NCBI GenBank assembly: GCA_041651295.1
Contig: JBAZJN010000003.1
Coordinates: forward strand, 14,016 to 78,015
Source of the DNA: Patescibacteria group bacterium
GTDB taxonomy: Bacteria > Patescibacteriota > UBA1384 > XYA2-FULL-43-10 > CAINNR01
DNA: 64,000 nucleotides
Reading direction: 5' to 3'
Shown: piece after piece, positions 2,302 through 48,175 of the stretch
Numbering within the stretch: position 1 is the first letter of the stretch
Layout: every line of letters starts with the position of its first letter
The notes under the pieces: model-generated
The model's database searches: none
Seen by the model: the letters and a program-made list of their open reading frames with translations, nothing else
Told to the model about the DNA's origin: nothing
Made by a program: the position numbers and the translations under genes

Positions 2302-4282
2302 AAAGCAGATTCAACGCATCAACATCCCAAGTCAGAGACACGAATTGAGAAAAAAGAGATGAAATATCTTTATTGGGTAAATTTTTTGATTTTATAATAA
2401 TTTGATAACGGTATTTGTTATGTAACCGCCCGAAGAAACACGGCCCCGGCCCGATTATTTCAATGCCTTTCTCTTTTAGGTTAACCGCTAGTTTTCTAAT
2501 ATCTTCTCTAGCCTTGCTTTCAGATTTATTTTCCGATAGTACTCGTATCAAATGCGAAGCCGGCGGATAATTTTTAGCTAATCTTTTATCGATCTCAGCC
2601 TGATAAAATCCTTCAAAGTCATGTAGGGCGGCAAATTTGATAGCGGCAGAATTTGGCCAATAAGTTTGGATAATTGTCTGCCCCAATTTTTGTCTTCGAC
2701 CGGATCGCCCGGAAACTTGAGTAATTAAACGAAATATTTTTTCTGAAGCTCGAAAATGTGGCATATGAAGTCCGACATCAGCAGAAATTATGCCAACAAG
2801 TGATACTCCCGGGATATCAAAACCTTTGGCCAAAATTTGCGTTCCAATTACTATGTCAAACTTGTGATCCCGAAAATCCTCGTAAAACTGTTCATACTCA
2901 TTATGATTATGTAATACTTTTGCATCAACCCGCTTTATCCTAGCTTTCGGAAAAAGTCTTTTTATCTCTAATTCAATTTTTTCGACGCCAGAACCAAAGT
3001 ACCTAATTCGAATACTGCCGCAATCGGGACACTTTGCCGGAACCGCTAGTTTTTTTTGGCAATGATGGCAAATTAAATAGTTTCCACTCTGATCAAGGTG
3101 TTGAATCATTGGAATTTCACAATTTGAGCAGCTAACGACAAAACCACAATCACGGCAGGAAACGAAAGTCGCCATGCCACGACGATTCAAAAATAATAGG
3201 GCTTGTTCCTTCTTTTTTAAAACGCGTAATATTGCTTCCTGCAGTTTTTCGGATATAGGTGAATAATTTTCTTTTTTAATTTCATTTTTTAAGTCAATAG
3301 TTTCTGCGACTGGCAACATCAATGAATTATAACGGCCTGACATTTTAAAAAGATCGTATATACCATTTTCAGCTTTATAATATGTTTCAATTCTTGGAGT
3401 TGCGGAGCCGAGGACCAAAAGTGCACCAAGCTTTTGTGACATTTTTTCCGCCAGGACGACAGCATCATATCGCGGATTTTGTTCCTGTTTGTAAGATTCT
3501 TCCTGTTCCTCATCAATAATTATCAAGCCAATTCTTTCATTTGGAACCAATAAAGCGCTGCGCGGTCCGACAATAATCTTTTTTTCTCCAGCGGAAAATG
3601 ATTTATAACAACTAAACTTTTCTGATTTCGAGAGTCCGGAATGCATTAACACAACATCTTGACCAAAAACTTGCTCAAAGCGCTCTATATTTTGTGGCGT
3701 CAAGACTATTTCTGGCACTAGCAAGACAACTGATTTTCCAAGTTCAATAGTTTTTTTGGCTAGATGAAGATAAATCTCTGTTTTGCCCGATCCGGTCACT
3801 CCATATATCAACGCCGGTTTTTTCTTTTTGACAACTAGATTTTGTGATAATCTGTCAAAAATATTTTTCTGATCAGTTGTCAGTGAATTCAGCTTGTATC
3901 TCTTGGCTTCTAATTTGCCTGTTTCTTGTTTCTTGTTTCTTGAAATCTTTAGCGATGGTGGCAAAAAGAGCGAAACTGCTTCCCCCGGGCTACATAAATA
4001 ATATTCGGATATCCACCTTGACAGTTCAATGTATTTTTTCGGAATAACAAATTCCTGATTAATTGAGACAATTTCTCTAATTTTAAATTTTAAAGTGTCA
4101 TTTTGAGCTTTAGAATTTGAAATTTGAACTTTTGATATCACTCCCCGAATCATATTTTTTCCAAAAGGAGCCTCAACTATTGCACCAGCTACAACTTTGT
4201 TTACCAAATCCTTCGGCACCGCGTAACAAAAAACTCCTTCACCCCAACAAGTCTTTGTTTCTGGAATTACATCAATTATCAT
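2300..4282 (-). CDS. priA: Primosomal protein N' (replication restart helicase PriA)
   Basis: 660 aa. Walker A is GVTGSGKTE, the DEEQ box is IIIDEEQE, there is a Cys-rich zinc-binding insert (CRDCG..CSNC..CHHC..CPDCG), and helicase C motifs are present. Confidence 0.9.
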   Translation of the reverse strand: MIIDVIPETKTCWGEGVFCYAVPKDLVNKVVAGAIVEAPFGKNMIRGVISKVQISNSKAQNDTLKFKIREIVSINQEFVIPKKYIELSRWISEYYLCSPGEAVSLFLPPSLKISRNKKQETGKLEAKRYKLNSLTTDQKNIFDRLSQNLVVKKKKPALIYGVTGSGKTEIYLHLAKKTIELGKSVVLLVPEIVLTPQNIERFEQVFGQDVVLMHSGLSKSEKFSCYKSFSAGEKKIIVGPRSALLVPNERIGLIIIDEEQEESYKQEQNPRYDAVVLAEKMSQKLGALLVLGSATPRIETYYKAENGIYDLFKMSGRYNSLMLPVAETIDLKNEIKKENYSPISEKLQEAILRVLKKKEQALLFLNRRGMATFVSCRDCGFVVSCSNCEIPMIQHLDQSGNYLICHHCQKKLAVPAKCPDCGSIRIRYFGSGVEKIELEIKRLFPKARIKRVDAKVLHNHNEYEQFYEDFRDHKFDIVIGTQILAKGFDIPGVSLVGIISADVGLHMPHFRASEKIFRLITQVSGRSGRRQKLGQTIIQTYWPNSAAIKFAALHDFEGFYQAEIDKRLAKNYPPASHLIRVLSENKSESKAREDIRKLAVNLKEKGIEIIGPGPCFFGRLHNKYRYQIIIKSKNLPNKDISSLFSQFVSLTWDVDALNLL

Positions 4283-7948: not shown

Positions 7949-8296
7949 TTATTTAGTGACTTGTTTAACTAGCTCTGCAAACGCTTCCGACTCAGTTTTT
8001 GCCATCTCTGCCATTACCTTTCGATTTAGTTCGATTTTTTGATCTGACAGCTTATTAATGAATTCCGAGTATGTAATTCCGTTTATTTTACAAGCGGCAT
8101 TTATAGAAATTATCCAAGAAGCCCTAAAATCTCTCTTTTTTCTTCGACGATCAATAAAAGCATTTGTTCCAGCTTTTAGTACTGCCTGTTTTGCCAGTTT
8201 AACGGAACTTCTTCGGCTAGACTTCATACCCTTAGTTTTGGCTAAAAGTCTTTTATGTTTTGCATTAGTTGTAACTCCACGCTTAACTCTCGACAT
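7949..8296 (-). CDS. rplT: 50S ribosomal protein L20
   Basis: The N-terminus MSRVKRGVTTNAKHKRLLAKTKG is the canonical L20 N-terminus. Confidence 0.95.
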   Translation of the reverse strand: MSRVKRGVTTNAKHKRLLAKTKGMKSSRRSSVKLAKQAVLKAGTNAFIDRRRKKRDFRASWIISINAACKINGITYSEFINKLSDQKIELNRKVMAEMAKTESEAFAELVKQVTK

Positions 8297-10481: not shown

Positions 10482-13301
10482 ATGAACAAAATAAAAATCA
10501 TCGGCGCCAGAGAACATAATTTGAAAAATGTCTCTCTTGAAATCCCGCGAGACAAAATGGTTGTTATTACCGGACTCTCCGGTTCGGGAAAATCATCATT
10601 GGCCTTTGATACCATTTTTGCCGAGGGACAGCGAAGATATGTTGAAAGTTTATCTTCGTATGCCAGACAATTTCTCGGCGTGATGGAAAAGCCGGACGTT
10701 GATTATATCGAAGGCCTGTCGCCGGCTATTTCTATTGACCAAAAATCCGCGTCCAATAATCCCAGATCAACCGTGGGGACAATCACGGAAATATACGATT
10801 ATTTAAGATTGCTTTTCGCCAGAATCGGTATTCCTCATTGCCCAAACTGTAAAAAACCGGTCAAACAACAAACTCCGACGCAAATCGCCAACCAGCTGCT
10901 CAATAATACTACTGAGACACTCAGGGTAATGATTCTGGCAATTTTGGTTTCAGATAGAAAAGGCGAACACCAAGATGTTTTTGCCCGAATAAGAAAATCC
11001 GGATTCTCGCGGGTTCGGGTCGATGGAGCCGTCATGGACATCGACGAAGCAGAATCAAAGGAACTGGATCGACAAAAAAAACACACGATTGAGGTGGTAA
11101 TTGATCGGTTGATAATTGAGCACGGTGGCAAAGACAAAAGTACGGAGATGAGACTTTTTGATTCTATTGAAAAAGCATTGGAAATTGGCGGAGGCTATAT
11201 AAAAGTTGCGTACATTGACAAGAAAACAGAAGAGCAATTTTCTGAACAATTCGCTTGTCCCGACTGCAACATATCACTACCGGAAATTGCGCCTAGATCA
11301 TTTTCATTTAACTCTCCACATGGCGCTTGCCCGAGATGCCAAGGCCTGGGAACAATATTGGAGATTGATCCGAAACTGATTCTTCCCAATCCTCGCTTAA
11401 CAATTCTCGAAGGAGCTATTAGACCTTGGTCCAAAACAGCTTCCAATTCGACTTGGTACATGGCCGGATTAAGAGCGATGGCAGACAAGCACAAGATTCC
11501 GCTAGACAAACCGATCGGACAATTAAAAAAAGAACATCTTCGGAAGGTGCTCTACGGCACTGATGAAGATCGTTACGACGTTTCGGGTTATTCATTGAAA
11601 TACGAAGGTATTATTTCAAATTTAGAGCGACGCTACAAAGAGACGCAGAGCGATTATATACGTTCGGAAATTGAAAAATACATGGTAAACCGAGTTTGCC
11701 CGGTTTGCCAGGGGCAAAGACTCCGACCTGAAATTTTGGGAATTACGATCACCGATAAAAATATCATCGAAGTTTCGGATATGACTATTGATAGTTGCTA
11801 CAGTTTTTTTCAGGGACTTGAAGAAAAATTAAATGAAGAACAGAAAATTATCGCAAACCAAATAATTAAGGAGATAAAAGCAAGGTTATCCTTTCTTCTG
11901 AATGTAGGTCTGCCATATCTTACTATTAATCGAAATGCCGCCACCCTTTCGGGCGGGGAAGCACAAAGAATCAGATTGGCGACTCAAATTGGGTCCGGAC
12001 TCCAAGGTGTGTTATACATTTTGGATGAACCATCTATCGGTTTGCATCAGAAAGATAATTCCAAACTGTTAAAAACTTTAACCAACTTAAGAGACTTGGG
12101 AAATTCAATAATAATTGTCGAACATGATGAAGAAACAATCCGATCCGCTGATTGGCTAATTGATGTCGGCCCCGGCGCCGGTGAAGCAGGCGGCAAAATC
12201 ATTTTTGAGGGCACACCAAAAGAAATTGAAAAAGCCGATTCAATTACCGGTGAATACTTATCAGGAAAAAAGAAAATCGCCACCCCTAAAATTAGAAGAG
12301 ATGGTAACGGTAATAAAATTTCCATTTTGAAAGCCAGAGCCAATAATTTGAAAGATCTCGATGTTGAAATCCCGCTAAATACGTTTACTTGCATTACAGG
12401 AGTTTCTGGCTCGGGCAAATCTACTTTAATTAATGATATCCTGTCGAAATCGCTGGCTAAAAAATTCTACCATGCAAAAGAAGTCCCAGGAGAGCATGAA
12501 GATATTGCCGGCACGGAAAATATTGATAAAGTAATAACGATTGACCAATCCCCGATCGGCAAGACTCCCAGGAGTAATCCGGCAACATATACGGCAGTCT
12601 TTACTTTTATTCGAGAATTGTTTGCTTCAACAGTTGAAGCAAAACTTCGAGGCTATAAGTCGGGACGCTTTTCTTTTAATGTTAAAGGAGGCAGATGCGA
12701 ACGCTGCCATGGTTGCGGAGTTTTAAAGATTGAAATGCACTTTTTGCCGAATGTTTACATTAGCTGCCCGGAGTGTAAAGGCGCAAGATATAACCACGAG
12801 GCGCTTGAAATTCATTATAAGGATAAAAATATATCCGAAGTTCTTGATATGACCGTAGATGAAGCGTTGAAATTTTTTGAAAATATTCCGGTAATAAAAC
12901 CAAAACTCCAAGTGCTTTCTGAGGTTGGTCTGGGATATATTAAACTTGGACAGCCAGCAACTACTTTGTCCGGCGGAGAAGCTCAAAGAATTAAATTGGC
13001 TACCGAACTTTCCCGCAAATCAACCGGCAGAACATTATATATTTTAGACGAACCGACTACAGGTCTGCATTTTGAAGATGTTAGTAAACTTCTTGGAGTA
13101 CTTATGGCTTTGGTTGACAAAGGAAATACTGTTGTGGTTATCGAACATAATTTAGACGTTATTAAATCGGCTGATTATATTATTGACTTGGGACCCGACG
13201 GCGGTGCGGCCGGCGGAGAAATTGTTGCCTTGGGAACTCCGGAAGATGTGGCCAAAAACTCAAAGTCATACACCGGCCAGTATTTAAAAAAAGTTTTATA
13301 A
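10482..13301 (+). CDS. uvrA: Excinuclease ABC subunit A
   Basis: 939 aa with two ABC ATPase modules ([26 protein letters not shown] twice), zinc modules ([28 protein letters not shown]) and a typical start ([13 protein letters not shown]). Confidence 0.97.
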
Positions 13302-14014: not shown

Positions 14015-14251
14015 ATGGAAAATGAAAAAAATCTGATTGAATCAATTATTAAACTCAAGAGAGCGACTGACCGGTCAAATAGTCTAGGCTGGATGATACT
14101 AAAAGGTATTTTCTATAGCATTGGCTGGGTAATTGGTCTAGGTATTATTGCAACAATCTTGTTTTACATTCTTCCACAGACGGGAGAAGGAAATATTATC
14201 GGCAAATTTATCCACGCCATGTCCGACGCCCTCCGTCAAAACAATTATTGA
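14015..14251 (+). CDS. Small membrane protein, function unknown
   Basis: 78 aa with one long hydrophobic hairpin. GGAGG lies upstream of the ATG. Confidence 0.55.
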   Translation: MENEKNLIESIIKLKRATDRSNSLGWMILKGIFYSIGWVIGLGIIATILFYILPQTGEGNIIGKFIHAMSDALRQNNY

Positions 14252-14332
14252 CAGTAGATAAAGTTTGTTCTATAATTATTTTGTTTCGATATTCGGGTTT
14301 CGAATTTCGAAATTCTGGCATCGGCGGATTAT

Positions 14333-14718
14333 GGGGCTGTATTAGCTTCGACAGAAGGATTTTAGATACACTATTGCAAGCAGGTAAGCCATGACCTTAA
14401 CAATGCAAACTTTAAGTGCAAAAACACTTACAGAAAAAGTTAAAACTGCTTTCGCAGGATTAGCTCTTTCGCCAGTCGCCGCTTAATTGCAGCGACCGTT
14501 CACTTGAAATCTACTCGAATTTCGAGATTCGAACGTCATACTTCGAGTTGCACTTAGCCTGACTCCTTAGCGGTTTAAGTCAAGATATTCTAAGGATAGA
14601 CTGACGATTTTTTGCAGCGACTTTACCGTCAGTTCGAAAACTTTTAGTCGTTGATAAGCTTGTAGAAAATTTTGTGTCTACCTTTTGGACAGGGGTGCAA
14701 CTCCCCTCAGCTCCACCA
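14333..14718 (+). ncRNA. ssrA: tmRNA (SsrA)
   Basis: The 5' end GGGGCTGTATTAGCTTCGACAG and the 3' end GGACAGGGGTGCAACTCCCCTCAGCTCCACCA match the tmRNA tRNA-like domain. The acceptor stem carries G3-U70 (GGGGCTG / CAGCTCC). An internal tag frame ends ...KTAFAGLALSPVAA followed by TAA. Confidence 0.92.
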
Positions 14719-16243
14719 TATCGTTTTTTTGGTCGTTTTTGACCATTTCAATATCCCGAATTAGCTTCAAAATAGGACTAATTTCGGGGGTGTAAACTTT
14801 TTTGACAGAATTTATAAAAATGTCCTGTTTTGAAATCAAAAGTTTACACTCTATTTTGTCGGCATGTTCAAGTCCCCACCAGTTCGTTTTTAATTCTTTG
14901 ATATAGCCGACTGAAAACTCAACAAACTCAATAAAATCATTCTCAATATTTCCTGTTTCTGTGATCTCTTTTTCAAGTTCGACAATCTCCGCTTTCTTTT
15001 TCTCGATTGATTCTTTTAACTCCTCCGCAATATCTGGATGGCTGATAACGCCTTCTGCTAGTTTTGTTTTCTCGTCTTTTAGTTTCGCCAACCTGATATT
15101 AAGCTGTTTTAACAGCGAGAAGCTATCTTTTTGCTGTTCTGTCCAAACCCTTCGCAAAGCGTTCTTAAAACCCTCCGTGTTGCTCTCAACCATCTCTATG
15201 TTACCCAAAAGCTCATCAGTCCACTCGTGAGCGTTTTGCTTCTTAATCACCTTGTGACAACCCCTGCAACGATACTCCTCGCCAATCCAATTATTTTTGC
15301 CGTTTCTGTGATCGTAGCCAACTATTTTTTTATCCAAACAATCACCGCAATAAAACAAATTCGAAAGCGGGTATTTTGGATTGTGTTGTTTTCTTTGAAA
15401 CTTCCGCATTTTATTATCAACAATTAGTTGTAATTCTTCCCATTCTTCTAGAGTGATCATTGCTTTGTGCAGTCCTTTGTCGTTCCACAGCTCTTTGTCC
15501 CAAGTTTTAACTCTTAATGCTCCTGCATAATAGGGGTCTTTTAATAACCTCCGAAAAATATCAATTCGAATTAGTTTGCCACTAGGTGCTGTATAACCTT
15601 GATTTGTCAATCGTGCAAACGCCTCATTAACAGTGTATCGTTGCGTCAATACCTCTCTAAACGCCTTTTGGAGCGATCCAAAGCGAGCTGGATCTGGAAT
15701 ATGAAAACCATCTTCCGTTCCCTTGGCGTAACCCTGGTGAAGTGGGAATGGCCAATATCCAAGAGAGACTCGAGCCTTAAGCCCACGAAGCGATTTACCA
15801 GCTCTTTCATCATTACTCATTTCTGCTTGGAGAATTTTTAGTAATTTCCCGACTTTTGCTGCTGTTGTATTCTCATTTAATTCAGGTGAAGATGCATAAT
15901 AAACAATTACCCCTAACTTTTCAAATTCGACTTCATACCAGTAAAACTCTTTTATACATCTCATAAAACGGTCAACTTCATCTACAAGCAAATATTTAAC
16001 TTGACGATTTGCCTTACAAAATTCAAATGCTTGTTTCAAATCTTTTCTAGCAAGGTTTTTCCCAGCTCTGCTGGACTGATCCACTGACCATTGTTTAACA
16101 ATAGGAGCATCAAGAAGTTCTGATGCTTTTTTAACGCTTGATTCCTGCCTCTCTAGGCTGTTGCCTTCAATTTTTTGCTCCAATGTGGATACACGACACA
16201 GAGCAATAGATTTTATGCTCATTTTTATTTCCTCCGCCAACAC
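14678..16243 (-). CDS. Large serine recombinase (integrase)
   Basis: 521 aa. The N-terminal resolvase domain is IALCRVSTLEQ...LERQ. A recombinase domain, a Cys-rich zinc ribbon (YCGDC...CRGC) and a coiled-coil C-terminus follow. The last 13 codons are antisense to the tmRNA 3' end. Confidence 0.9.
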   Translation of the reverse strand: MLAEEIKMSIKSIALCRVSTLEQKIEGNSLERQESSVKKASELLDAPIVKQWSVDQSSRAGKNLARKDLKQAFEFCKANRQVKYLLVDEVDRFMRCIKEFYWYEVEFEKLGVIVYYASSPELNENTTAAKVGKLLKILQAEMSNDERAGKSLRGLKARVSLGYWPFPLHQGYAKGTEDGFHIPDPARFGSLQKAFREVLTQRYTVNEAFARLTNQGYTAPSGKLIRIDIFRRLLKDPYYAGALRVKTWDKELWNDKGLHKAMITLEEWEELQLIVDNKMRKFQRKQHNPKYPLSNLFYCGDCLDKKIVGYDHRNGKNNWIGEEYRCRGCHKVIKKQNAHEWTDELLGNIEMVESNTEGFKNALRRVWTEQQKDSFSLLKQLNIRLAKLKDEKTKLAEGVISHPDIAEELKESIEKKKAEIVELEKEITETGNIENDFIEFVEFSVGYIKELKTNWWGLEHADKIECKLLISKQDIFINSVKKVYTPEISPILKLIRDIEMVKNDQKNDMVELRGVAPLSKR

Positions 16244-16256
16244 AAAAGGCAGCCTC

Positions 16257-16340
16257 TGGACAATCCGCTACGACACGGAATGAAGAGACTGCCATTTGCG
16301 TCAACAAGTAATAATTGATTGTGTCGTAGTTTATTGTCCA
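16257..16340. repeat. Imperfect inverted repeat just upstream of the recombinase start
   Basis: tggacaatCCGctacgacac (16257-16276) pairs with gtgtcgtagTTTattgtcca (16321-16340). That is 17 of 20 positions complementary with a 44-nt spacer. Confidence 0.6.
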
Positions 16341-16346
16341 TATTTA

Positions 16347-16493
16347 TTATACTCTTTCCTTAATTTTTAATAAAGATTCTTTGATTTTTTTCTTTCTATA
16401 TTGTTTATACAAAAATCTTGCCCAAGCTTCGTTTTCTTGTTCAATGATTTTACTGTTTATCGTCTTATTTGTTTTTATGCTATCATCGTTCAT
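16347..16493 (-). CDS. Small basic ORF (48 aa) upstream of the recombinase
   Basis: Hand-translated as MNDDSIKTNKTINSKIIEQENEAWARFLYKQYRKKKIKESLLKIKERV. It is below the ORF-track length cutoff and has the same orientation as the recombinase. Confidence 0.35.
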   Translation of the reverse strand: MNDDSIKTNKTINSKIIEQENEAWARFLYKQYRKKKIKESLLKIKERV

Positions 16494-16563
16494 TCTTATA
16501 CGAATTTGTTAGATTTTGAATATTTTTACCCTTGATTTCTTATGTTTATTTAGAATAAAGGCA

Positions 16564-16722
16564 TTATTTGTTAGCCCATGGTCTGAACGGAAAAAGTGAG
16601 CAATTTTCTAGCAAACAATCAGTTTTTGTCTGGTGGCACATACAGTCATAACATTTAGCTTTGATTGCTTTTTCGATCTCCACTTTGAATCCAGTCAATC
16701 TTTTCTTTTTTTCTCGATTCAT
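16564..16722 (-). CDS. Small Cys-rich ORF (about 52 aa), mobile-element type
   Basis: Hand-translated as MNREKKKRLTGFKVEIEKAIKAKCYDCMCHQTKTDCLLENCSLFPFRPWANK. The pattern is CxxC..C..CxLxPxRP. AAGGA lies upstream. Confidence 0.45.
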   Translation of the reverse strand: MNREKKKRLTGFKVEIEKAIKAKCYDCMCHQTKTDCLLENCSLFPFRPWANK

Positions 16723-17171
16723 TCAATTCCTTTCAAAAGAAAATCCCTGTAGTAACAGAACGAAAACTACAAGGATTATCTTTGTTCTGTTAATAAATTT
16801 TTTACAAAAAAAGGCAGCGTTGAGTGCTGCCTACAAAAAAGAGACTAAACTAAATAAAGAATAGACATGCACCCAGGTGCATCGGCTATTCTCCGTCAGG
16901 TTTAATCTCGCCAGTAAATAAGAGATTGATAATGGATTTTGGTTTTCCATTTAAGCAAAGCCAATTGCTTAACGATTTTTCCAGATTTCTCCACTAGATG
17001 TTATTTACTGATAACACGGAACTAATTTCCCATTCAGAAGAATGTTTTATAAATGTTCGAAGAACAATTCAATTTTATCGCTAAATTGGTGACTTGTCAA
17101 ATTTCATTAAAATTATGTTGTAGCGTCGGCACGATTGAATCTTGTCAGCTAATTTGGTAGTATTTAATCGT

Positions 17172-17297
17172 CTAGGTAACCATGGCGAATTGGCTATTTT
17201 TGCCAACGAACGATTATGCCCGATATAGGGCAGTCGTTCGAAAAACTGGGCGTAATCCGCCTGGTTGCCTAGACAGCTAGAACGGCTGTCCTTTTTA
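17172..17297 (+). promoter_or_regulatory. Structured leader ending in an intrinsic terminator (riboswitch-like or attenuator) upstream of two small membrane-protein genes
   Basis: A closing stem (ctaggtaacc 17172-17181 with ggttgcctag 17263-17272) encloses an inner hairpin at 17207-17240 (cgaacga/tgccc...gggca/tcgttcg). A terminator follows (gacagc...gctgtc plus cttttt, 17272-17297), about 25 nt before ATG 17322. Confidence 0.4.
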
Positions 17298-17321
17298 TTC
17301 AATGAAAATAATTGAAATAAA

Positions 17322-17600
17322 ATGAAAAAAATAATAGTGAGAGTCAAAGCGTTTTGTGCATTAATTGTTTGTCTGGCGATTATTTTGATGACCACAGTGG
17401 GGTTCCAGTGGGCAATTTGGACGGGGTTGTATCCAAGCAGCCTATTCTTGGTGATTATTGCTTGCCCGATAGCGTTGCTTACTGCGATTTGGGTACTAAT
17501 TGAGTTTGGCAAGCTTATTCCTGACCTTTTCAAAGTGGTAATTACTGGAAAAGAAATTTATTATTCAGCAGATGATGACTATCATTATCCAACTTGCTGA
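17322..17600 (+). CDS. Small 2-TM membrane protein (island cargo)
   Basis: 92 aa with two clear hydrophobic helices. I prefer it to the overlapping antisense ORF 17081-17533. Confidence 0.55.
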   Translation: MKKIIVRVKAFCALIVCLAIILMTTVGFQWAIWTGLYPSSLFLVIIACPIALLTAIWVLIEFGKLIPDLFKVVITGKEIYYSADDDYHYPTC

Positions 17601-17703
17601 TTAAAATAATAACAGTATCGTGGATAGAAAGGCCTCGTAGATCAATTTATGCTCGAATTAGATAGTTTGCAAGAATAATAAAGTAATTTAGAAAGAAGAT
17701 AAA

Positions 17704-18090
17704 ATGACCGAATCTAACATTGCGAAAGTTTCGGCCAAAAAATGGTATCAAAAGCCTTTTTGGTTGATCGGTTTAGTTGTTCTTGCTTTCGGGAGTATTA
17801 GTGATAGTACAAGCGTCGAGCGGTTTTTAATCTTGATTTTTGTAATTACAGGAATTTTATTCTTATTGTGGTTTTATTCTGCCATGAAAACGAAACATAA
17901 ATTTTTTGCATTTACAATTTCAATGTTTATTACAATAATTTTGTTGATTGTATTGTTCCTGTTATTAAATTGGATCAAATGCGGGGGTTCTTACTATGGA
18001 ATTTTTGGTGGAAGATGTCCAACCTATCGAGAATCAATTTATAGTACTTCATCAACTACTTCTGGGAAAAAAGGTTTAGATAAGTATTAA
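17704..18090 (+). CDS. Small 3-TM membrane protein (island cargo)
   Basis: 128 aa with three hydrophobic helices and a Cys/Gly/Ser-rich tail. Confidence 0.55.
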   Translation: MTESNIAKVSAKKWYQKPFWLIGLVVLAFGSISDSTSVERFLILIFVITGILFLLWFYSAMKTKHKFFAFTISMFITIILLIVLFLLLNWIKCGGSYYGIFGGRCPTYRESIYSTSSTTSGKKGLDKY

Positions 18091-18314
18091 GTAGTTTTAA
18101 CTATTTTAGTATTGGAGTTAGAACTACAATAAAAGTATAATTTACTTTGACATTAGTTAATAGAAAAGACTTGATACTGAAATTGTTGCATTTTGTTGCA
18201 TAACTAAATATTTTTGCTGCAATTCTGTGTTCGTCATATTGAAACAGAGGGGGTGGGATAAGAATCATTTTTCGGGGGTATGGCACATTCATTTTTCTAT
18301 CTTCATTTGTCAAA

Positions 18315-19160
18315 CTACTCAAGTGATGAAGGCAACTCATTATTGCCAATAGGGGACAACTCAACACGGGCCTTTATAGAGTCGCCTAAAATTTCCTCGT
18401 TTATTAACTTGCCTAAGGATTCACTCGTAATTCTTTGCAGCACTCGCTTGACAGTTTTAATGTTATCTTTTCCAATACCATGTATTGTTAAATACAACAA
18501 ACCAAATTCTACATTTTCTCTAATTTTTTTAAAGATTTTGTTGTTGATGTCATCATCGGTCATGCCTTGATAAACAAAAACAGCTGTTGGATAGCTATCA
18601 ATTAGGTCGTAAAAAATACTCCTAAATTTTTCAGGTTCTAGCCATTTTTCTTTATCGAGCTCCTTAAATAGGGGTATTATGCTGTTTTCCAAATAGCCTG
18701 CGGTGCAAAGATTACTTAAGTTTGCACCCCTTGTTCCATATCGACTTATGATCTGTGTTTTCAGCAATTTGCATCGTTCTCTGTCTCCGCTCTTATAAAC
18801 TTTTCTTAAATACAATGCAGTTTCGAGTAAATTAAGATCTACTTGTGGCAATCTATTTCTGAAAAAACCTACAATGCTTTGATATTCTTGATCTGATGAT
18901 ATTTTTGCATAATCTAGGCAGGTTAAATCAGCACTGGGCTCAATAAATTCCATCCGTCTACTAAAACTACTAGTTATAAAGTCATCAATAACTTGCTTTT
19001 CTTCACCTTTGGCATAATGGGGATTAACTATATTAACAACACAATTTTCGAGTTTAACTTCAACCTTCTTCTCTTCAGAAGTTAGTATTTTTATGCCACT
19101 CAAAATACTGGATCTTTTTATTTGAAATTTTTCAAATAATTTTTCCCAGATACTCACCAT
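18315..19160 (-). CDS. Hypothetical protein (island cargo)
   Basis: 281 aa. The start is 1 nt after the stop of the upstream 82-aa ORF. The C-terminal segment YLTIHGIGKDNIKTVKRVL is weakly Smr-like. Confidence 0.6.
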   Translation of the reverse strand: MVSIWEKLFEKFQIKRSSILSGIKILTSEEKKVEVKLENCVVNIVNPHYAKGEEKQVIDDFITSSFSRRMEFIEPSADLTCLDYAKISSDQEYQSIVGFFRNRLPQVDLNLLETALYLRKVYKSGDRERCKLLKTQIISRYGTRGANLSNLCTAGYLENSIIPLFKELDKEKWLEPEKFRSIFYDLIDSYPTAVFVYQGMTDDDINNKIFKKIRENVEFGLLYLTIHGIGKDNIKTVKRVLQRITSESLGKLINEEILGDSIKARVELSPIGNNELPSSLE

Positions 19161-19161
19161 G

Positions 19162-19410
19162 TTATTTACCTAGTCTAAATTTTTTGGTGTATTCGATCAA
19201 AGAACCAATATCAGATTTAATAATAATTTCTGACCCTTTTCGAATCCCAGCAAAATCCTTTATTTTTACTTCCTCTCCATTTAGAGATAAAGCAGGCTGT
19301 TTGGTTTGAGCATCAACAATAATTCCCTTCTTAGTGCCTTTCCCGAGTAATTGCAACAAATAACGTTTCAGCTCTGAATTGTTTTCGAAAAGTACTTTAT
19401 TTGTTGACAT
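19162..19410 (-). CDS. Hypothetical small protein (island cargo)
   Basis: 82 aa. AAGGAGA lies upstream of the ATG. It is tightly coupled to the downstream 281-aa ORF. Confidence 0.55.
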   Translation of the reverse strand: MSTNKVLFENNSELKRYLLQLLGKGTKKGIIVDAQTKQPALSLNGEEVKIKDFAGIRKGSEIIIKSDIGSLIEYTKKFRLGK

Positions 19411-19597
19411 TGTGTCTCCTTGTTATGCAAGCATTTGTTTGATATTTATGATCCAATAATAGCACATTGTCGGTATGTAGTGATAATACATCAAGGGATT
19501 ATAATTGCAAGGCAAATTTCTTCTTCTGAAAGCGTGGGTAAATTATTTCCTTCCATCTTTTAGCTTCATCTTGAATAGAGCGTAAATTAATTCTAAC

Positions 19598-19608
19598 CAG
19601 CTCCACCA
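19598..19608 (+). repeat. Right-hand copy of the tmRNA 3'-terminal 11-mer (putative attR core)
   Basis: The sequence cagctccacca is identical to 14708-14718. Confidence 0.6.
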
Positions 19609-19671
19609 AACAAAACAGAGCAACTTTATGTTGGTCTTTTTTGTTTGACACGAATATGATTAAATACTTCT

Positions 19672-20268
19672 ATGAAAAAGAAAATATTACTCCATGCCTG
19701 CTGCGCTCCTTGTACCGCCGGAGTCTACGAACAACTAAAAGATGATTTTGATGTAACACTTTTTTGGTATAATCCAAATATTTTTCCCAAAGTCGAACAC
19801 GATCGAAGATTGACCGAACTTCTAAATTTTTGTGATAAAAAGAATATTAAAATTATAGTTGGTGAATATGATTGGGATGAGGAACATAATTATTGGCTGG
19901 GGCTGATAAAAGGATTAGAAAAAGAACCCGAACGCGGCAAACGATGTCAGGCTTGTTATCAAATGAGGCTAGAGGCAACTGCGGCTCTTGCAGCCCAAGC
20001 AAATGATCATCATGACGGCGAATTTAATTATTTTGCCGCCGAGCTTTCAATTTCACCCCACAAGAACTCAAAAACAATCAACGAAATAGGGGATAAAATT
20101 AGTAAAAAATTGACCACAAGTCATCCCCGCGAAAGTGGGGATCTACTCCGTTATTATTCTGCTGATTTCAAAAAGAACGACGGCATCAAAAAAGCCTCGG
20201 AAATTAGTACAAAAAATAACCTTTACCGCCAAAACTATTGCGGTTGCGAGTTCTCTATTGGATCTTAG
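19672..20268 (+). CDS. queH: Epoxyqueuosine reductase QueH (DUF208 family)
   Basis: LLHACCAPC at the N-terminus, CQACY in the middle and YCGCEFS at the C-terminus form the typical QueH Cys pattern. Confidence 0.8.
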   Translation: MKKKILLHACCAPCTAGVYEQLKDDFDVTLFWYNPNIFPKVEHDRRLTELLNFCDKKNIKIIVGEYDWDEEHNYWLGLIKGLEKEPERGKRCQACYQMRLEATAALAAQANDHHDGEFNYFAAELSISPHKNSKTINEIGDKISKKLTTSHPRESGDLLRYYSADFKKNDGIKKASEISTKNNLYRQNYCGCEFSIGS

Positions 20269-20704
20269 ATTTCAAGGCTCTACCGGCCTCAATCTCTTCT
20301 TCCCGTCGCTTGATAGTTGATCTTTTATCATGAAGTTTTTTGCCGCGTGATAGGGCAATTTCGATCTTTGCCTTTCCGTGTTTGAGATAGATTTTTGAAG
20401 GAACAATTGTTAAACTTTTTCCTTCAGACTTTGAAACTAACCGCTCGATCTCTTCGGCGTGCAAAAGCAGTTTCCTAGTTCGTTGCTGGTCACCGTCTGA
20501 GACCGAAATGACTCCCCCAATCCACCATGCCTCGCCGGCGACTATTTTTACATGAGATCCGCTTAAGTTGACCTTGTTGGCTCTAATAGCTTTAATTTCT
20601 TCGCCGGTAAGTACAATCCCGGCCTCAAGGTCTTCAACAAAAGTGTATTCAAACCTCGCCTTGCGGTTTATTAAATTCTTCGACTTGCGCTGTTTGATTT
20701 TCAT
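20255..20704 (-). CDS. smpB: SsrA-binding protein
   Basis: NRKARFEYTFVEDLEAGIVLTGEEIKAIR...LLLHAEEIERL...KLHDKRSTIKRRE is canonical SmpB. Confidence 0.93.
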   Translation of the reverse strand: MKIKQRKSKNLINRKARFEYTFVEDLEAGIVLTGEEIKAIRANKVNLSGSHVKIVAGEAWWIGGVISVSDGDQQRTRKLLLHAEEIERLVSKSEGKSLTIVPSKIYLKHGKAKIEIALSRGKKLHDKRSTIKRREEEIEAGRALKSKIQ

Positions 20705-21922: not shown

Positions 21923-21998
21923 GCCGATGTAGCTCAGTGGATAGAGCGCCTCCGTCCTAAGGAGGGCGTCGCAGGTTCGATTCCTGCCATCGGTACCA
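21923..21998 (+). tRNA. tRNA-Arg (anticodon CCT), CCA encoded
   Basis: GCCGATGTAGCTCAGTGGATAGAGCGCCTCCGTCCTAAGGAGGGCGTCGCAGGTTCGATTCCTGCCATCGGTACCA. The anticodon loop is GTCCTAA. Position 1-72 is a G-U pair. Confidence 0.9.
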
Positions 21999-22239: not shown

Positions 22240-22263
22240 GATACCACGAAAGGGGAGCTGGGA

Positions 22264-22944
22264 ATGGATATGTTCAGTCGGCTACGGGAGTTGTCGTCAG
22301 TGTTGAAGGTCAGCAATTTGTATCAACAAGTCGCTGACGAAGTGATTACCTTTGTCTTCTTCATCTGTCCCAAGATGAAGGGTCAGGGGTTCAGGCTCAA
22401 TAGCAACAAAACAGGATTTGACGCTGAGTATGTTCCAGCAGTCCTGGCGAACAGTGCTATTCTGGCGATTGAGAGGGCTACACGATTCCTATCTGAGTTC
22501 GAGACACTTGGCCTTCCGTTCGTGGCACGGGCGCTTTACGCATCTGCAGACGCGCTTATCCTGCCATCAGTACCAACTACTCCACCAGCTACACCAGTAA
22601 GTCCAAGCATCGAGATCGTTTCCAACAATCGGGTGGTTGTTGAACATCTCACCGATTTTGGAAGACTGTATCGCGAGAAGCCGTGGCGCAATACCCCGCA
22701 AAAGATCAGCGAGCTTGAAAGGCAACGGCTAGTTTCGATTCTGCCGTCAAACACCCCGGCAAATGTCGCTTGTGATTTCGTCGAACGCACTTGGTCTGGG
22801 TTTGCACTTGACGGAGTGCTGATCCGTGGCGAGTGTTTTGGTCCCAATCCCGTGCTTCTAGGTGTTGAAAGCCCGGGTGTTGGCGTGCTTCAAAACGCTG
22901 CACTTCCGAGAGACCGGTGGTTGCCAGTAATTCAACTGGTATGA
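22264..22944 (+). CDS. Hypothetical protein in a strongly GC-enriched gene; apparent distant paralog of the next gene
   Basis: 226 aa. GGGGAG lies upstream. GC is far above the flanks, so all frames are open here. It shares ITFxxFxCP, GLPFVARALYASADALI versus GINFRYVKIIADTNLSYI, and ERTWSGFALDGVLI versus KRTIATYAAEGIIF with ORF 23011-23862. Confidence 0.6.
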   Translation: MDMFSRLRELSSVLKVSNLYQQVADEVITFVFFICPKMKGQGFRLNSNKTGFDAEYVPAVLANSAILAIERATRFLSEFETLGLPFVARALYASADALILPSVPTTPPATPVSPSIEIVSNNRVVVEHLTDFGRLYREKPWRNTPQKISELERQRLVSILPSNTPANVACDFVERTWSGFALDGVLIRGECFGPNPVLLGVESPGVGVLQNAALPRDRWLPVIQLV

Positions 22945-22950
22945 ACAAAT

Positions 22951-22982
22951 CGGGGAGGTTTATCCCTCCCCGAGCTATTTTT
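22951..22982 (+). terminator. GC-rich hairpin plus T-run
   Basis: Stem cggggagg, loop tttatc, stem cctccccg, followed by agctattttt. Confidence 0.6.
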
Positions 22983-23010
22983 GCTAATATTATTTTAGAT
23001 AAGGAAAAGA

Positions 23011-28386: not shown

Positions 28387-29751
28387 TCACTCAATCACTG
28401 AGATTTGTTTGTCTTTTAAGCTCATCTTGATTTTAAGGCAATTTAGGAGTTCTCGCTTTTCTTCTCTGGCTCCTTCGCGAAGGACGAATTTTGAGTAATC
28501 CCTTAAATCAACTTCGTTGTTTAAGTCTTTGCTGACTTTTTGCTTTAGTATTTTTTGCATGAATCTTTCGTATCTGGTGATTTCCTCCTGCAAATGCTTT
28601 TGGGTGTTTAATGTATCCGGGTCAATTTGATCCATAATATTACAGATTTGCTCCGTGACTTCTTCTTCTCGAATATATGGTTGTTTGCAGTTCCGGTCTT
28701 TACCTCCAGTGCAGTGATAATATACGTATCTTCGAATTACTCCATTATCCTGTCGTTTGAATTTTTCTTCAGCGGTTACGCCTGAACCGCAGACTCCGCA
28801 ATAGATTAGCTTCGTAAAATCAAACTCTTTCGTCCCCGGTCTGGATTTGGGAATAATAGCCAGCCGTTCTTGCACTTTATCGAATAGTTCTTTGGTAATG
28901 ATGGATTCATGAGCTACTTGATACCAAGTTCCACTTCCGCTTGGGTACTGAAAGAATCCATAATAGTAGGTGTTATTAAGAATTGTGTAAATTGTACTTA
29001 AAACTACCAGTTTACCTTGGCGAGATTTAAAGTTAATTGAATTTAGCCAGTTTAATACTTTCCGGTCACTTTCACCGTTGGAGACCCGTTCAAAAACCTC
29101 TTTGATTGTTGTGGCTCTCTCTGCGTCAAGGAATATCTTTCGATAGCCCTTTTTGCCTCCGATTTCGTTGACATATCCCAGTGGTGGAGCACATGGTCTG
29201 AATCCCATTTCACATTTGGCCTTGAGCCCTCGCTTAACATTAATCACCTTGTTATCGTTCTCAAGTTTCGCCTGACTTCCTAGAATCATTAACAGAAATT
29301 TATCATTCGGTGAATTGGTTAAAGCCTGGCTGTGGGTCCTAATCTCCCTTAAGTGGCCATTGTCCATTAAATCCACCAGCATTCCCAAATCCCCGGCATT
29401 TCGACTCATTCTGTCCGGTGCCCAAGTTAAAATTCCGTTAAATTCGCCTTTTTTAATGTCGGCAATCAACTCATTAAATACTGGCCTGGTTCCCGAATTC
29501 TTGGCTGAATGACTCTCTCGTCGTATATCGGTTACTAGCAACCCCTCAGATTGAGCCAAGTCGGCCATTTCTTTTACTTGCGAGTCGATTGAAAGTGCCT
29601 GGCGCTCATCATCCTCGCTGGATTTTCTAGCATAAAGGCAATATTGAATCTGTGTGCTACCAAGCTTGATTGGGTCAGCATAAACGCCGTTTACCTCGTA
29701 AGGCATTCGGGTATGTGTTTTATTGTTGAATTGTGGCTCCAGTGGTTCCAT
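28387..29751 (-). CDS. Large serine recombinase
   Basis: 454 aa. The resolvase domain is YARKSSEDDERQALSIDSQ...APDRMSRN. A recombinase domain and a zinc ribbon (YCGVCGSG...YYHC) follow. It lies 18 nt upstream of the next minus-strand gene. Confidence 0.9.
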   Translation of the reverse strand: MEPLEPQFNNKTHTRMPYEVNGVYADPIKLGSTQIQYCLYARKSSEDDERQALSIDSQVKEMADLAQSEGLLVTDIRRESHSAKNSGTRPVFNELIADIKKGEFNGILTWAPDRMSRNAGDLGMLVDLMDNGHLREIRTHSQALTNSPNDKFLLMILGSQAKLENDNKVINVKRGLKAKCEMGFRPCAPPLGYVNEIGGKKGYRKIFLDAERATTIKEVFERVSNGESDRKVLNWLNSINFKSRQGKLVVLSTIYTILNNTYYYGFFQYPSGSGTWYQVAHESIITKELFDKVQERLAIIPKSRPGTKEFDFTKLIYCGVCGSGVTAEEKFKRQDNGVIRRYVYYHCTGGKDRNCKQPYIREEEVTEQICNIMDQIDPDTLNTQKHLQEEITRYERFMQKILKQKVSKDLNNEVDLRDYSKFVLREGAREEKRELLNCLKIKMSLKDKQISVIE

Positions 29752-29924
29752 ATTTCCTCTCTGATCTTTTGCTCAGGGAGGATTATACCGCAAGTGTTTT
29801 ACAAGTCCAGATGTGCATAAAAATGCTTTACTTTAAGCGTGGTTATGCTATTATTAAGTAGTTATCGTACATCAAAACTTATTGCCTAACCCTCAAAGAT
29901 TTTCTTTGAGATATGGCGCAAAAT

Positions 29925-29966
29925 CTATCCCTAGTAAATAGCTCGTCGTCAGAGCACTAGGGATAG
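29925..29966. repeat. 42-bp site with 11-bp terminal inverted repeats (candidate recombinase site or hairpin)
   Basis: ctatccctagt, then 20 nt, then actagggatag. Confidence 0.6.
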
Positions 29967-30052
29967 TTGTATCTCGAAAGGGATACAGGTGATCGCAAGA
30001 TCATCGCTGGCGGCGGGCTTTTTGTATCTTGCCGCCCAGATAAAGCGGAATA

Positions 30053-46250: not shown

Positions 46251-46618
46251 TTTTTCCTCTCGTTTTATTGATTAAGCTATGGGGTGTTTACACTGCTGTA
46301 TCTTGTCCTCGAATTGAGAAGGGTATAAGTTTTTTCTTTTTTTGTGACATTTTGCCTCCTTTCGACGAGTTAGTTTGCTTACAAAAAAACACCTGCGACA
46401 GGTATGTGGATTTAGCGTCCTTCACACCAATACGCACGTGCTTTATTCGCACTTATTCTGCCTTAGCGGCATTTCTTTTGTTATCCTCAGTATAATCAAC
46501 CGAAGTTGCTTGTCAACAATCGGTTTAGAAAACTTACGCTTGTTTACATTCTAAATTATTAACAATATTGTAAAAATAGATAGTACCAAAGCTAATAATT
46601 AAATAGGAGAAACAAAGT

Positions 46619-48175
46619 ATGAAAGTAGCCATTTATTTGCGAGTTTCCACAATGGATCAGGCGACCAGAGGCAACACTAATCGAGACGGTTTTTCTATCC
46701 CGGCACAGCGCGAAGCTTGCCGTCATAAAGCCGAAAGTCTTAAAGCCACTACTATTCAGGAGTATACGGATCGCGGCGAAAGTGCCCGTTCGGCTGCAAG
46801 ACCAGCGCTGCAACGATTATTGGCTGACCTGGGCAAAAAGAAAAGCTTCGATTATGTTATCGTTCATAAAATTGATCGTCTGGCCAGAAGTACGTTTGAT
46901 GACGTCACCATTTGTTTAGCTATCAAGGAAAGTGGAGCTCAACTAGTTTCTGTCACTGAGAATATCGATGACTCTCCTTCAGGTGGCTTGATGCATGGAA
47001 TTATGGCTTCCATCGCCGAATTTTACAGTCGTAATTTGGCGGCGGAAGCACTAAAAGGTGCAGTCGAAAAAGCCAAGCAAGGCGGAACGCCATACATGGC
47101 ACCAATTGGATATACCAACATAATTGAGAGGATCAATCACAGAGAAAATCGAACTGTTATTCTTGATTCTGAACGCGCCCCACTTATTATCTGGGGCATT
47201 GAGCATTATGCCACCGGCGATTACAGCAAAACACAATTACGCGAAGAGTTGATAAAACGAGGTTTGAAAAATCGTCCCAATGTTAATAATCCAATCAGTC
47301 TGACTAGTTTGGATCGGATGCTAAGTAATCGATATTATCTTGGCTATGTAAATTATTGCGGGGTTGAATACAAAGGGAATCACCAACCTTTGGTGACGCC
47401 AGCAGTTTTTGCCGCAGTTCAAGCCGTTCGATCAAGTCAGAAATCTCATCGCGGTAAGAGTCATAAAAATTTTCATTATCTATCCAGACTGCTAGTTTGT
47501 GAGCGTTGCCATCGTCATCTTTGTTTTGCAATTTGCAAACGCCGATACTCATATTTCTTTTGTATGAACCGAAAGGACACAGGTTGTGAACAACCATATA
47601 TTCCACTGACTTTAATCGAAGAAAAAATCATAGATGCCTTCAAACAAATGAATTTATCCAAAAATGATCATGAAAAAATAGCATCTGGAATCGATGAGGA
47701 ATTAAAAGCCGGTCGAATCCAAGCAGAATTTGAGATAAAAAGGCAAAAGCAGCGAATTAATCGACTCGAAATCGAGCAAGAAAACATGCTACAGGCGTAT
47801 TACGATAAAATCATCGAACCGGATTTAATGAAAAAGGAACAAAAGAGGCTAAATAAGGAGATTAAATCAGCTCAAATTGTTACCTCAGATTCAGAAAAAC
47901 GATTATCGGTTATCAATAATAGGAGAGTTCGCGCTCTGGAAATAGCCAGCGACTTAGATATTGGTAATACTTATTTGAAAGCCAACCCGGTGATAAAGAG
48001 ACATTTCTGCCAAGCACTATTTTCGGAGATTGCCATTAATGATCAACCAGATGGTCAGATGAAAGTATATTGGTGGCAGAAAGAGCATCACGTCACTGTA
48101 AAGGTCAATTGGCATCAGCCAATCAACATTCGCCACATTACCGAAGCTATTTTAATGTTATCCCTTGAAAGGTAA
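46619..48175 (+). CDS. Large serine recombinase
   Basis: 518 aa. The resolvase domain is VAIYLRVSTMDQ...HKIDRLARS. A recombinase domain, a zinc ribbon (CERCHRHL...) and a coiled coil follow. AGGAGA lies upstream. Confidence 0.9.
   Translation: MKVAIYLRVSTMDQATRGNTNRDGFSIPAQREACRHKAESLKATTIQEYTDRGESARSAARPALQRLLADLGKKKSFDYVIVHKIDRLARSTFDDVTICLAIKESGAQLVSVTENIDDSPSGGLMHGIMASIAEFYSRNLAAEALKGAVEKAKQGGTPYMAPIGYTNIIERINHRENRTVILDSERAPLIIWGIEHYATGDYSKTQLREELIKRGLKNRPNVNNPISLTSLDRMLSNRYYLGYVNYCGVEYKGNHQPLVTPAVFAAVQAVRSSQKSHRGKSHKNFHYLSRLLVCERCHRHLCFAICKRRYSYFFCMNRKDTGCEQPYIPLTLIEEKIIDAFKQMNLSKNDHEKIASGIDEELKAGRIQAEFEIKRQKQRINRLEIEQENMLQAYYDKIIEPDLMKKEQKRLNKEIKSAQIVTSDSEKRLSVINNRRVRALEIASDLDIGNTYLKANPVIKRHFCQALFSEIAINDQPDGQMKVYWWQKEHHVTVKVNWHQPINIRHITEAILMLSLER

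Follow-up and report, generated by a model that had tools for sequence, protein, structure and literature searches.

A stretch of 64,000 nt from a Patescibacteria contig (the whole of which is referred to here as the window) contains, at 14719-19608, what is very probably a mobile element of about 4.9 kb, whose own large serine recombinase (LSR) inserted it by recombining the core of the element's attachment site, attP, with the identical last 11 nt of the transfer-messenger RNA (tmRNA) gene, ssrA. Comparison of related loci shows that an integrase gene split in this manner is standard in a clade of Patescibacteria LSRs, at the level of sequence, with sub-clades that target the genes for tmRNA and for tRNA-Gly, -Lys, -Arg, -Glu and -Val. 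The window island is, as far as could be determined, a member of an undescribed clade of split-gene serine integrases that target tDNA, a term used here for a tRNA or tmRNA gene.

As read from the sequence, attP consists of the C-terminal coding region of the integrase gene (P' arm, presumed to be the codons just upstream of the core, within the LSR gene at about 14719-14745 on the minus strand), the core itself, and a detached tail exon (P arm), and attB comprises the T-arm and acceptor region of the tmRNA gene, the core, and the downstream flank. The free form encodes an integrase of 537 aa, in which a flexible linker leads to a conserved helix of ~28 residues bearing the pattern ExxRW[KR]x[IL]L. 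Integration strands the 32-codon exon at the distal end of the island (19499-19597) and joins the gene body to the antisense strand of ssrA, yielding a protein of 514 aa with nine unrelated terminal residues and a stop codon inside the tmRNA gene; the element brings its own ACCA and acceptor 3' strand, and ssrA therefore remains intact. The final ~8 nt of the tDNA probably contain the crossover dinucleotide, CTCCACCA being a candidate stretch, and in members that target tmRNA genes TGGTGGAG is common to every block that attL and attR share. The predicted attB contains ..CCCCTCAGCTCCACCAAACAAAACAG.. (in longer form, GGTGCAACTCCCCTCAGCTCCACCAAACAAAACAGAGCAAC) and the predicted attP contains ..TTCTAACCAGCTCCACCATATCGTTT.. 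(in longer form, AAATTAATTCTAACCAGCTCCACCATATCGTTTTTTTGGTC).

The tmRNA gene, its displaced repeat and the integrase

The presumed target, ssrA, is complete at 14333..14718 on the plus strand, with its CCA encoded (ARAGORN, which gives the tag as AKTLTEKVKTAFAGLALSPVAA), and matches Rfam RF00023 at 110 bits over the full-length model (positions 1-374), terminating in ...CAGCTCCACCA. A putative sigma-70-like promoter (TTGACA-17-TATAAT) precedes it at 14248..14276 (+), with 12/12 hexamer positions matching, a match to consensus only. The terminal 11 nt, comprising the acceptor stem 3' strand, the discriminator and CCA, form the attL core (14708..14718), whose minus strand encodes (M)VEL of the integrase; a displaced copy of this tmRNA 3' end, at 19598..19608, forms the attR core. 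No other exact copy of CAGCTCCACCA exists in the window. Matches with no more than one mismatch number four, against a mean of 0.36 in dinucleotide shuffles (none of 100 shuffles reached four), and the interior of the island holds no further copy at two mismatches or fewer. The locus thereby displays the intact tmRNA gene and displaced 3' fragment, as a direct repeat, by which the Islander approach defines an island, albeit with a fragment of merely 11 nt. Overall G+C is 0.350 in the island and 0.38-0.39 in its flanks.

Beyond attR, the chromosomal B' flank (19609..19671, +) would adjoin ssrA directly after excision, placing the 3' end of ssrA 63 nt from the start of queH; the same attR junction is present in a second sample (L082; numbers of this form denote database contigs or loci, and those beginning with P their LSR proteins). 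An earlier note on this DNA had proposed that the 11-mer brackets a recombinase and orphan cargo, and that removal of the segment would bring ssrA to about 1 kb from queH and smpB. The exactness of both copies and the shuffles support the repeat, the list of open reading frames (ORFs) and family searches bear out the contents, and Pfam searches confirmed queH (19672-20268) and smpB (20255-20704).

The integrase gene, in its integrated-state form of 514 aa, occupies 14678..16222 on the minus strand; the ORF spans 14678-16243, and the ATG at 16222 is the likeliest start. Its final codons, M-V-E-L-RGVAPLSKR-stop, are read from 14719-14678, with M-V-E-L crossing the 11-mer and the last nine codons and stop (14707-14678) antisense to the tmRNA body. 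Altogether, 41 nt of the ORF fall within the tmRNA 3' end, which upholds the description in the earlier note of an LSR ORF that runs through the att core into ssrA and stops at 14678.

The assignment of this protein to the large serine recombinases, also made in that note, is sustained by matches to Pfam Resolvase (PF00239, E=9.6e-11), to Pfam Recombinase (PF07508, E=1.4e-7, over the gathering score) after the catalytic domain, and to the integrase family phrog_95 of PHROG (E=5e-43). In alignments of 28 and 80 homologues, the catalytic Arg-x-Ser and DRFMR motifs, with residues R10, S12, R85 and R88, are invariant or nearly so; Cys295, Cys319 and Cys322 are also invariant, and Pfam Zn_ribbon_recom gave no match to the window protein. 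A PDB search with the single sequence returned nothing, whereas the family profile matched the C-terminal domain of the A118 integrase (4KIS/6DNW, E=6e-13), in an alignment covering recombinase domain, zinc ribbon and coiled coil, as well as the catalytic domain of the TP901-1 integrase. The AlphaFold2 (AF2) model of the homologue P0003 has the LSR fold (mean pLDDT 88.7), in which long helices (346-446) come after beta strands at 290-327. Among the island ORFs there is no tyrosine recombinase, and none besides the integrase matched any Pfam family; the sole recombinase is of the serine type, and the tyrosine integrase that also enters the Islander definition is absent. A search of 50,697 phage records revealed no close relative of this LSR.

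Outside the island, the region 22250-23000 has a G+C of 0.51, compared with 0.38 for the window, and overlaps a 226-aa ORF with no Pfam match on record, which sits just downstream of a tRNA-Arg gene (21923-21998). Two near-copies of the tmRNA core, CTACTCCACCA and CAGCTACACCA, occur in this region at 22577-22596.

The detached tail exon in a clade of integrases

The segment 19499..19597 (-) encodes VRINLRSIQDEAKRWKEIIYPRFQKKKFALQL, a C-terminal exon of 32 codons plus stop that is in frame with the LSR gene in the circular (attP) form only. Joining the island ends in silico across the 11-mer produces an ORF of 537 aa, and its joined tail, VRINLRSIQDEAKRWKEIIYPRFQKKKFALQL-stop, is the exact product of 19597-19499 (-). 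A hidden Markov model (HMM) of the tail matches this exon at E=5e-16. A natural counterpart is found in P0003, a protein of 537 aa that is 66% identical to the window LSR and ends ...HLVEL-IRENLHIIQAEARRWREIINPKYQKYKFTLQT. The contig encoding it, L095, has the identical 11-nt core TGGTGGAGCTG, and its junction is colinear with the reconstructed window attP (71% identity over 245 nt), while the cargo past the tail stop codon is unlike that of the window. The circular junction predicted in silico is, on this comparison, matched by a natural sequence. In a third locus, L084, an LSR that is 67% identical to that of the window also adjoins a tmRNA gene, and the same tail exon lies 7.3 kb upstream. 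The tails of the window, of P0003 (natural) and of L084 (joined in silico) agree in length and stop position, and the substitutions among them give pN of 0.22-0.28 versus pS of 0.63-1.0 (Nei-Gojobori). These values point to purifying selection on the translated peptide, beyond what a mere DNA binding site would impose.

The AF2 model of P0003 renders the tail as one helix (509-536, pLDDT 72-78), preceded by a disordered linker of ~18 residues (490-507) that includes those encoded by the core. About 94% of the protein (505/537 residues), with all catalytic and DNA-binding domains, would be left intact by integration. Two further suggestions of the earlier note, that the joined ORF would continue into a particular tail and that the state of integration would change the C-terminus of the recombinase, find support in the exact exon and its homologue on L095, in the 537-aa and 514-aa forms, and in the conservation of the tail as a peptide across targets.

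The wider distribution was assessed in 86 loci, of which a scan with a single genome for each GTDB species gave 80 and the window and extra contigs the rest; the 80 scanned loci are almost all labelled Saccharibacteria, Saccharimonadales or Patescibacteria. In 63/86, the LSR stop codon lies 6-194 nt into a gene for tRNA or tmRNA carried by the other strand, the targets including tRNA-Gly (21), tRNA-Lys (20), tmRNA (8), tRNA-Arg (5), tRNA-Glu (4) and tRNA-Val (3), and the LSRs cluster by target tDNA in a neighbour-joining tree. A distal repeat (>=9 nt) that starts exactly at the tDNA 3' end was found in 15 loci with an adjacent tDNA and measures 9-21 nt; short blocks of identity span 8-21 nt.

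After joining in silico, 14 elements targeting tmRNA, Arg and Gly genes yield the tail motif [WLFY][HY]x[LI]xxExxRW[KR]x[IL]L in frame, at a fixed 4-5 residues past the core, and five natural database ORFs bear the tail (P0003, P0035, P0056, P0067 and P0075). A narrower form of the tail motif reads [WLF]Hx[IL]xxExxRW[KR]x[IL]L. Run against all loci translated in six frames, the tail HMM matched 66 times, and only on the LSR strand. Upstream of the LSR gene, a tail exon is present on the same strand in 56/86 loci, detached by 3-11 kb, and most loci lacking a match offer less than 3.5 kb of upstream sequence to search. From the start of the tail exon to the end of the LSR gene, family islands measure 3.2-11.1 kb (median 6.9 kb). 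In this clade, with stop codons inside tDNA and tail exons upstream, integration therefore splits the integrase gene: judged from these sequences, the gene body stays beside the tDNA and the last ~30 codons reside at the other end of the island. The attP core thus falls inside the integrase ORF, and the encoded protein is changed on integration.

Several features of relatives deserve separate mention. Many have a conserved 'NKKD..' linker before the core, which on the tDNA strand reads as a stem-loop and then a run of T, as in GAAAGACTTTTCaagctctGAAAGGTCTTTTTTGTT (L043/L045/L093, about 11485-11522; L008, about 8250-8283; L084, about 4190-4226). These elements may supply their tDNA with a replacement intrinsic terminator from integrase coding sequence. 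The chromosomal flank at the distal repeat has a similar appearance, and the window element presents no obvious case. In L084 (4071-4226), an 18-nt fragment of the tmRNA 3' end lies 156 nt beyond a distal core of 9 nt, and the intervening DNA resembles a remnant of another LSR 3' end, which suggests that ssrA there underwent successive integrations.

Mobility and the meaning of the altered C-terminus

Comparison of related ssrA loci, which the earlier note had put forward as a means of judging the island, identified near-identical strains without it. In three other samples (L089, L090 and L092), the sequence is 99.92-99.96% identical to the window from its position at about 9.9 kb up to the T that follows the tmRNA CCA, and diverges wholly after that T, where the island is missing; in L089, 4866-6795 takes the place of window 14719-19656. 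Since near-identical strains lack the island and diverge at the tmRNA end, it is not ancestral to the species. The identical occupied site recurs in L082.

Recombination at the core itself is best illustrated by two relatives, L045 and L047, which share a 7.2-kb LSR element (98.4% identical) and a second element of 2.6-2.7 kb (84% identical), arranged in opposite order relative to tRNA-Gly, with every junction at the core TGGTGCGG. Site-specific recombination at the core is therefore needed to account for the exchange. The second element (L047 12493-14157, +; L045 1736-4425) encodes a 554-aa LSR of another sub-family and little else; this LSR ends within tRNA-Gly(GCC), as ..FVCGAG-stop, with an overlap of 13 nt. 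The possibility that this 2.6-kb module is a satellite devoid of an LSR was rejected on finding that gene. Likewise rejected as free attP forms were L083, L085, L047 and L074, in which the LSR gene runs on into DNA that is not tDNA but which carry the family tail exon 5-7 kb upstream on their contigs; in L047, moreover, the sequence after the core belongs to the second element. The junctions in these four lie within tandem arrays.

These findings bear on a quite different explanation, namely that the 11-mer repeat is coincidental, the recombinase a resident (domesticated) gene beside ssrA, and the segment ancestral. The repeat is, after all, just 11 nt, and a clean empty site is lacking. Yet a second exact copy is unexpected by chance, joining the ends in frame recreates a conserved peptide known in nature, the near-identical strains without the segment have their breakpoint at the CCA, and the same architecture recurs at no fewer than six other tDNA types. 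A fixed, syntenic arrangement without distal tail exons is also contradicted by the tail exons of the family, and we regard this explanation as scarcely credible.

Integration by the LSR remains much the better account, but a number of observations weigh against it, or against a role for the altered C-terminus. In the sister strains, the position before queH is filled by 1.9 kb (G+C 0.42) encoding a sortase and a 320-aa surface protein with an ice-binding domain. The core repeat is missing there, and identity over the queH region is just 87.5%, compared with 99.96% for the left flank. Because of this different filler and the right flank of only 87.5% identity, the strains are not a clean before-and-after pair; the filler and divergent queH suggest a recombination breakpoint at ssrA. 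The empty site and circular junction that the earlier note had hoped to see in reads were both absent from the JGI metagenome contigs: a degenerate pattern for attB, attP, attL and attR, validated on the window, found no attB or attP of the window element there and returned just an unrelated low-GC tmRNA locus (L086), and the contigs encoding the window QueH present occupied sites only, none empty. The L095 junction, on a contig of 2.9 kb, could belong to a tandem array rather than to a free circle. Family searches recognised no recombination directionality factor, replication or transfer module in the island. Finally, the antisense-encoded tails of relatives range from a few to >50 residues, in frames that differ between sub-clades and with no conserved sequence, and some relatives stop just 6-23 nt into the tDNA.

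Some of these points would also be expected if the island were a stranded remnant, integrated once in this way and now immobile in its lineage. Beside the failure to find attB or attP, that view draws on the small size of 4.9 kb, on the orphan cargo and a tract of about 1 kb (16.2-17.3 kb) with tiny ORFs only, and on the identical copies in two samples. It is at odds with an intact integrase ORF that keeps all invariant catalytic residues, with identical cores, with a tail exon that is free of stops or frameshifts and ends at the same position as those of relatives, and with a size inside the family range. Immobility in this sense appears improbable to us.

If the element is mobile, the more intricate question is what the exchange of C-termini signifies. 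The tail probably has a function in the free form, and its loss would therefore alter activity, stability or the choice of partner. By analogy with IntP/IntX of Mx8, the two isoforms may differ in activity, such that the state of integration feeds back on recombination. Expression may also change, for in the integrated state ssrA, whose promoter matches the consensus perfectly, is transcribed towards the 3' end of the integrase gene and antisense to it, which should lower integrase expression. An alternative holds that the element is real and the swap a neutral by-product of an attP that overlaps the gene, the two isoforms behaving alike and direction being set, as for other serine integrases, by a separate, unrecognised factor. 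The variable antisense-encoded tails and early stops just described are in keeping with neutrality (no sequence is conserved in the integrated-form tail because these tails vary freely among relatives), as is the tethering of the tail through a disordered linker, and the short conserved ORF that precedes the integrase gene is a possible directionality factor. Set against this, sub-clades that differ in target conserve the attP-form tail as a peptide, at a fixed distance from the core and with pN well below pS. A dispensable tail should decay, so losing this one on integration probably has some effect. We hold the neutral explanation to be possible but on the whole unlikely, and from the sequence comparisons a switch of direction or regulation seems the more plausible role for the swap.

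One-way insertion of large DNA relies mainly on serine integrases, whose direction is normally set by a separate protein and whose natural targets are for the most part protein-coding genes. In the strongest version of such a switch, the split gene would itself be the directionality device, dispensing with any separate factor, each DNA state encoding the isoform that drives exit from it. In the free form, the tethered RW helix would enable the full-length integrase for attP x attB recombination or confine it to that reaction, for example via the coiled coil, and the integrated element would make a tail-less integrase competent for attL x attR, kept low by convergent transcription and by antisense pairing with the abundant tmRNA or tRNA. 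We offer this version tentatively and consider it rather doubtful in so complete a form. Were it true, it would constitute a two-state toggle suited to compact elements of 3-11 kb, and for engineering it would yield serine integrases that land at universal sites in tRNA genes and whose direction can be programmed.

Islands at tDNA are classic and have been attributed to tyrosine integrases; the target of Mx8 is likewise a tRNA gene, that for tRNA-Asp. The element resembles islands of the Islander/TIGER class, such as mycobacterial prophages at the tmRNA gene, in using the tDNA 3' end as target, in bringing a tDNA 3' fragment that leaves the gene intact and the displaced fragment as a direct repeat, in the position of the integrase gene beside the tDNA, and apparently in sporadic presence among strains. 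It differs in its enzyme, a serine rather than a tyrosine recombinase, and repeats in this LSR clade are 8-21 nt, compared with 25-76 bp in tyrosine systems (PMC8092301). Surveys report that serine integrases favour coding sequences and have short cores (PMC13626063; PMC8092301). Our literature searches turned up no account of a serine integrase that targets a tRNA or tmRNA gene, nor of one in Saccharibacteria; uncommented cases may nevertheless be listed in catalogues of islands, TIGER among them. With the phage LSRs (A118/LI, TP901-1, Bxb1 and phiC31), the clade shares the order of resolvase domain, recombinase domain and a probable zinc ribbon with embedded coiled coil, the short common core, and an integrase gene at the edge of the element. 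Unlike them, it targets tDNA 3' ends rather than protein-coding genes, has attP within the integrase ORF, and adds a C-terminal linker and conserved helix that are encoded across attP and lost on integration.

Precedents for an att site inside a gene come from tyrosine systems. The integrase of the Myxococcus phage Mx8, IntP/IntX, is described as having attP in its coding sequence, where integration alters the 3' end and the protein and acts as a switch of recombination (PMC6070905, citing Tojo 1996 and Magrini 1999). The location of attP and an altered protein in the integrated form are common to both, but Mx8 is a single phage system with a tyrosine recombinase rather than a diversified clade, and the part lost here is a discrete conserved helix. 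In SSV1-type integrases, tyrosine recombinases of archaeal viruses, the att site is likewise within the gene and integration splits it (PMC5861418), but in the gene body and with inactivation. The window protein, with its serine recombinase domains, lacks the tyrosine chemistry that characterizes both. In mycobacteriophages with integration-dependent immunity, such as BPs and Charlie, attP lies in a regulatory ORF, and integration at tDNA alters the C-terminus of the protein and how stable or active it is (PMC8092301). The protein altered in those phages is a repressor accompanying a tyrosine integrase, whereas here it is the serine integrase itself.

The clade thus targets the most conserved bacterial sequences, the 3' ends of tRNA and tmRNA genes, a niche credited to tyrosine integrases, and by placing an att site inside its own gene would provide a conserved C-terminal helix in the free form only. 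How serine integrases read tDNA ends, and whether the isoform itself encodes direction, are questions raised by this arrangement. For the hard-to-manipulate Patescibacteria/Saccharibacteria, it also offers a first way in to small integrative elements and perhaps to genetic tools.

Small ORFs, cargo and neighbouring elements

The integrase leader (16244..16346, -) contains an inverted repeat, GGCAGTCTCT..22 nt..CCAGAGGCTGCC, in a region conserved in L095; possible roles for the repeat are those of operator, attenuator or RNA structure. DNA homology of L095 (655-2322) with the island reaches about 210 nt upstream of the integrase start. Next upstream is a conserved ORF of 48 aa (16347..16493, -; ..ENEAWARFLYKQYRKKKIKE.., with ..ENEAWARFLYKQYKKKKLKE.. 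in its L095 homologue), which had no family match in Pfam, PHROG, PADLOC or NCBIfam and bears a weak likeness to the integrase tail motif (tail HMM, E=0.0018). It is a candidate regulator or accessory factor. A Cys-rich ORF of 52 aa (16564..16722, -), cargo or accessory, has no homologue and no family match.

The remaining cargo consists of orphans. Two are predicted membrane proteins on the plus strand, one of 92 aa (17322..17600), with a single weak match to the PADLOC 2TM effector (E=0.005), and one of 128 aa (17704..18090), with no family match and an identical protein in L082. On the minus strand, an 82-aa protein (19162..19410; no family match) would be the product of the gene that first follows the integrase stop codon in the circle, and a 281-aa protein (18315..19160; one weak match, ParB-like phrog_26387, E=0.003) would also be encoded downstream of the integrase gene and on its strand. 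None of the cargo ORFs had a significant match in Pfam, PHROG, PADLOC or NCBIfam, nor a homologue among 85 related islands. The cargo of related elements is heterogeneous and mostly orphan, and the proteins directly upstream of their LSR genes gave no Pfam match. No phage structural, conjugation or replication genes were recognised in the island or in sampled relatives, and an Rfam E-value scan of the island revealed no RNA family besides tmRNA.

Elsewhere in the window are two more complete LSR genes, at 28387-29751 (-) and 46607-48175 (+), which bring its serine integrases to three; the domains Resolvase, Recombinase and Zn_ribbon_recom are present in both. Both belong to sub-families distinct from the enzyme of the tmRNA island, and no tRNA was detected at their 3' ends. 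A LOOT RNA (Rfam RF03000), for which no published function was found in the literature, is located at 29883-30005 (+), 132 nt upstream of the second window LSR gene and divergent from it. The same RNA occurs 0.6-2.7 kb upstream of a tDNA-targeting LSR gene in 6/17 related loci scanned (L005 5046-5158, L006 9191-9301, L016 8776-8891, L030 9208-9323, L059 8565-8682 and L075 7319-7439), at <=1.4 kb in five of them, and downstream of the LSR gene in a seventh (L042 12922-13030). With Rfam scores of 66-91 bits, these occurrences indicate that LOOT RNA may be carried by serine-integrase elements.

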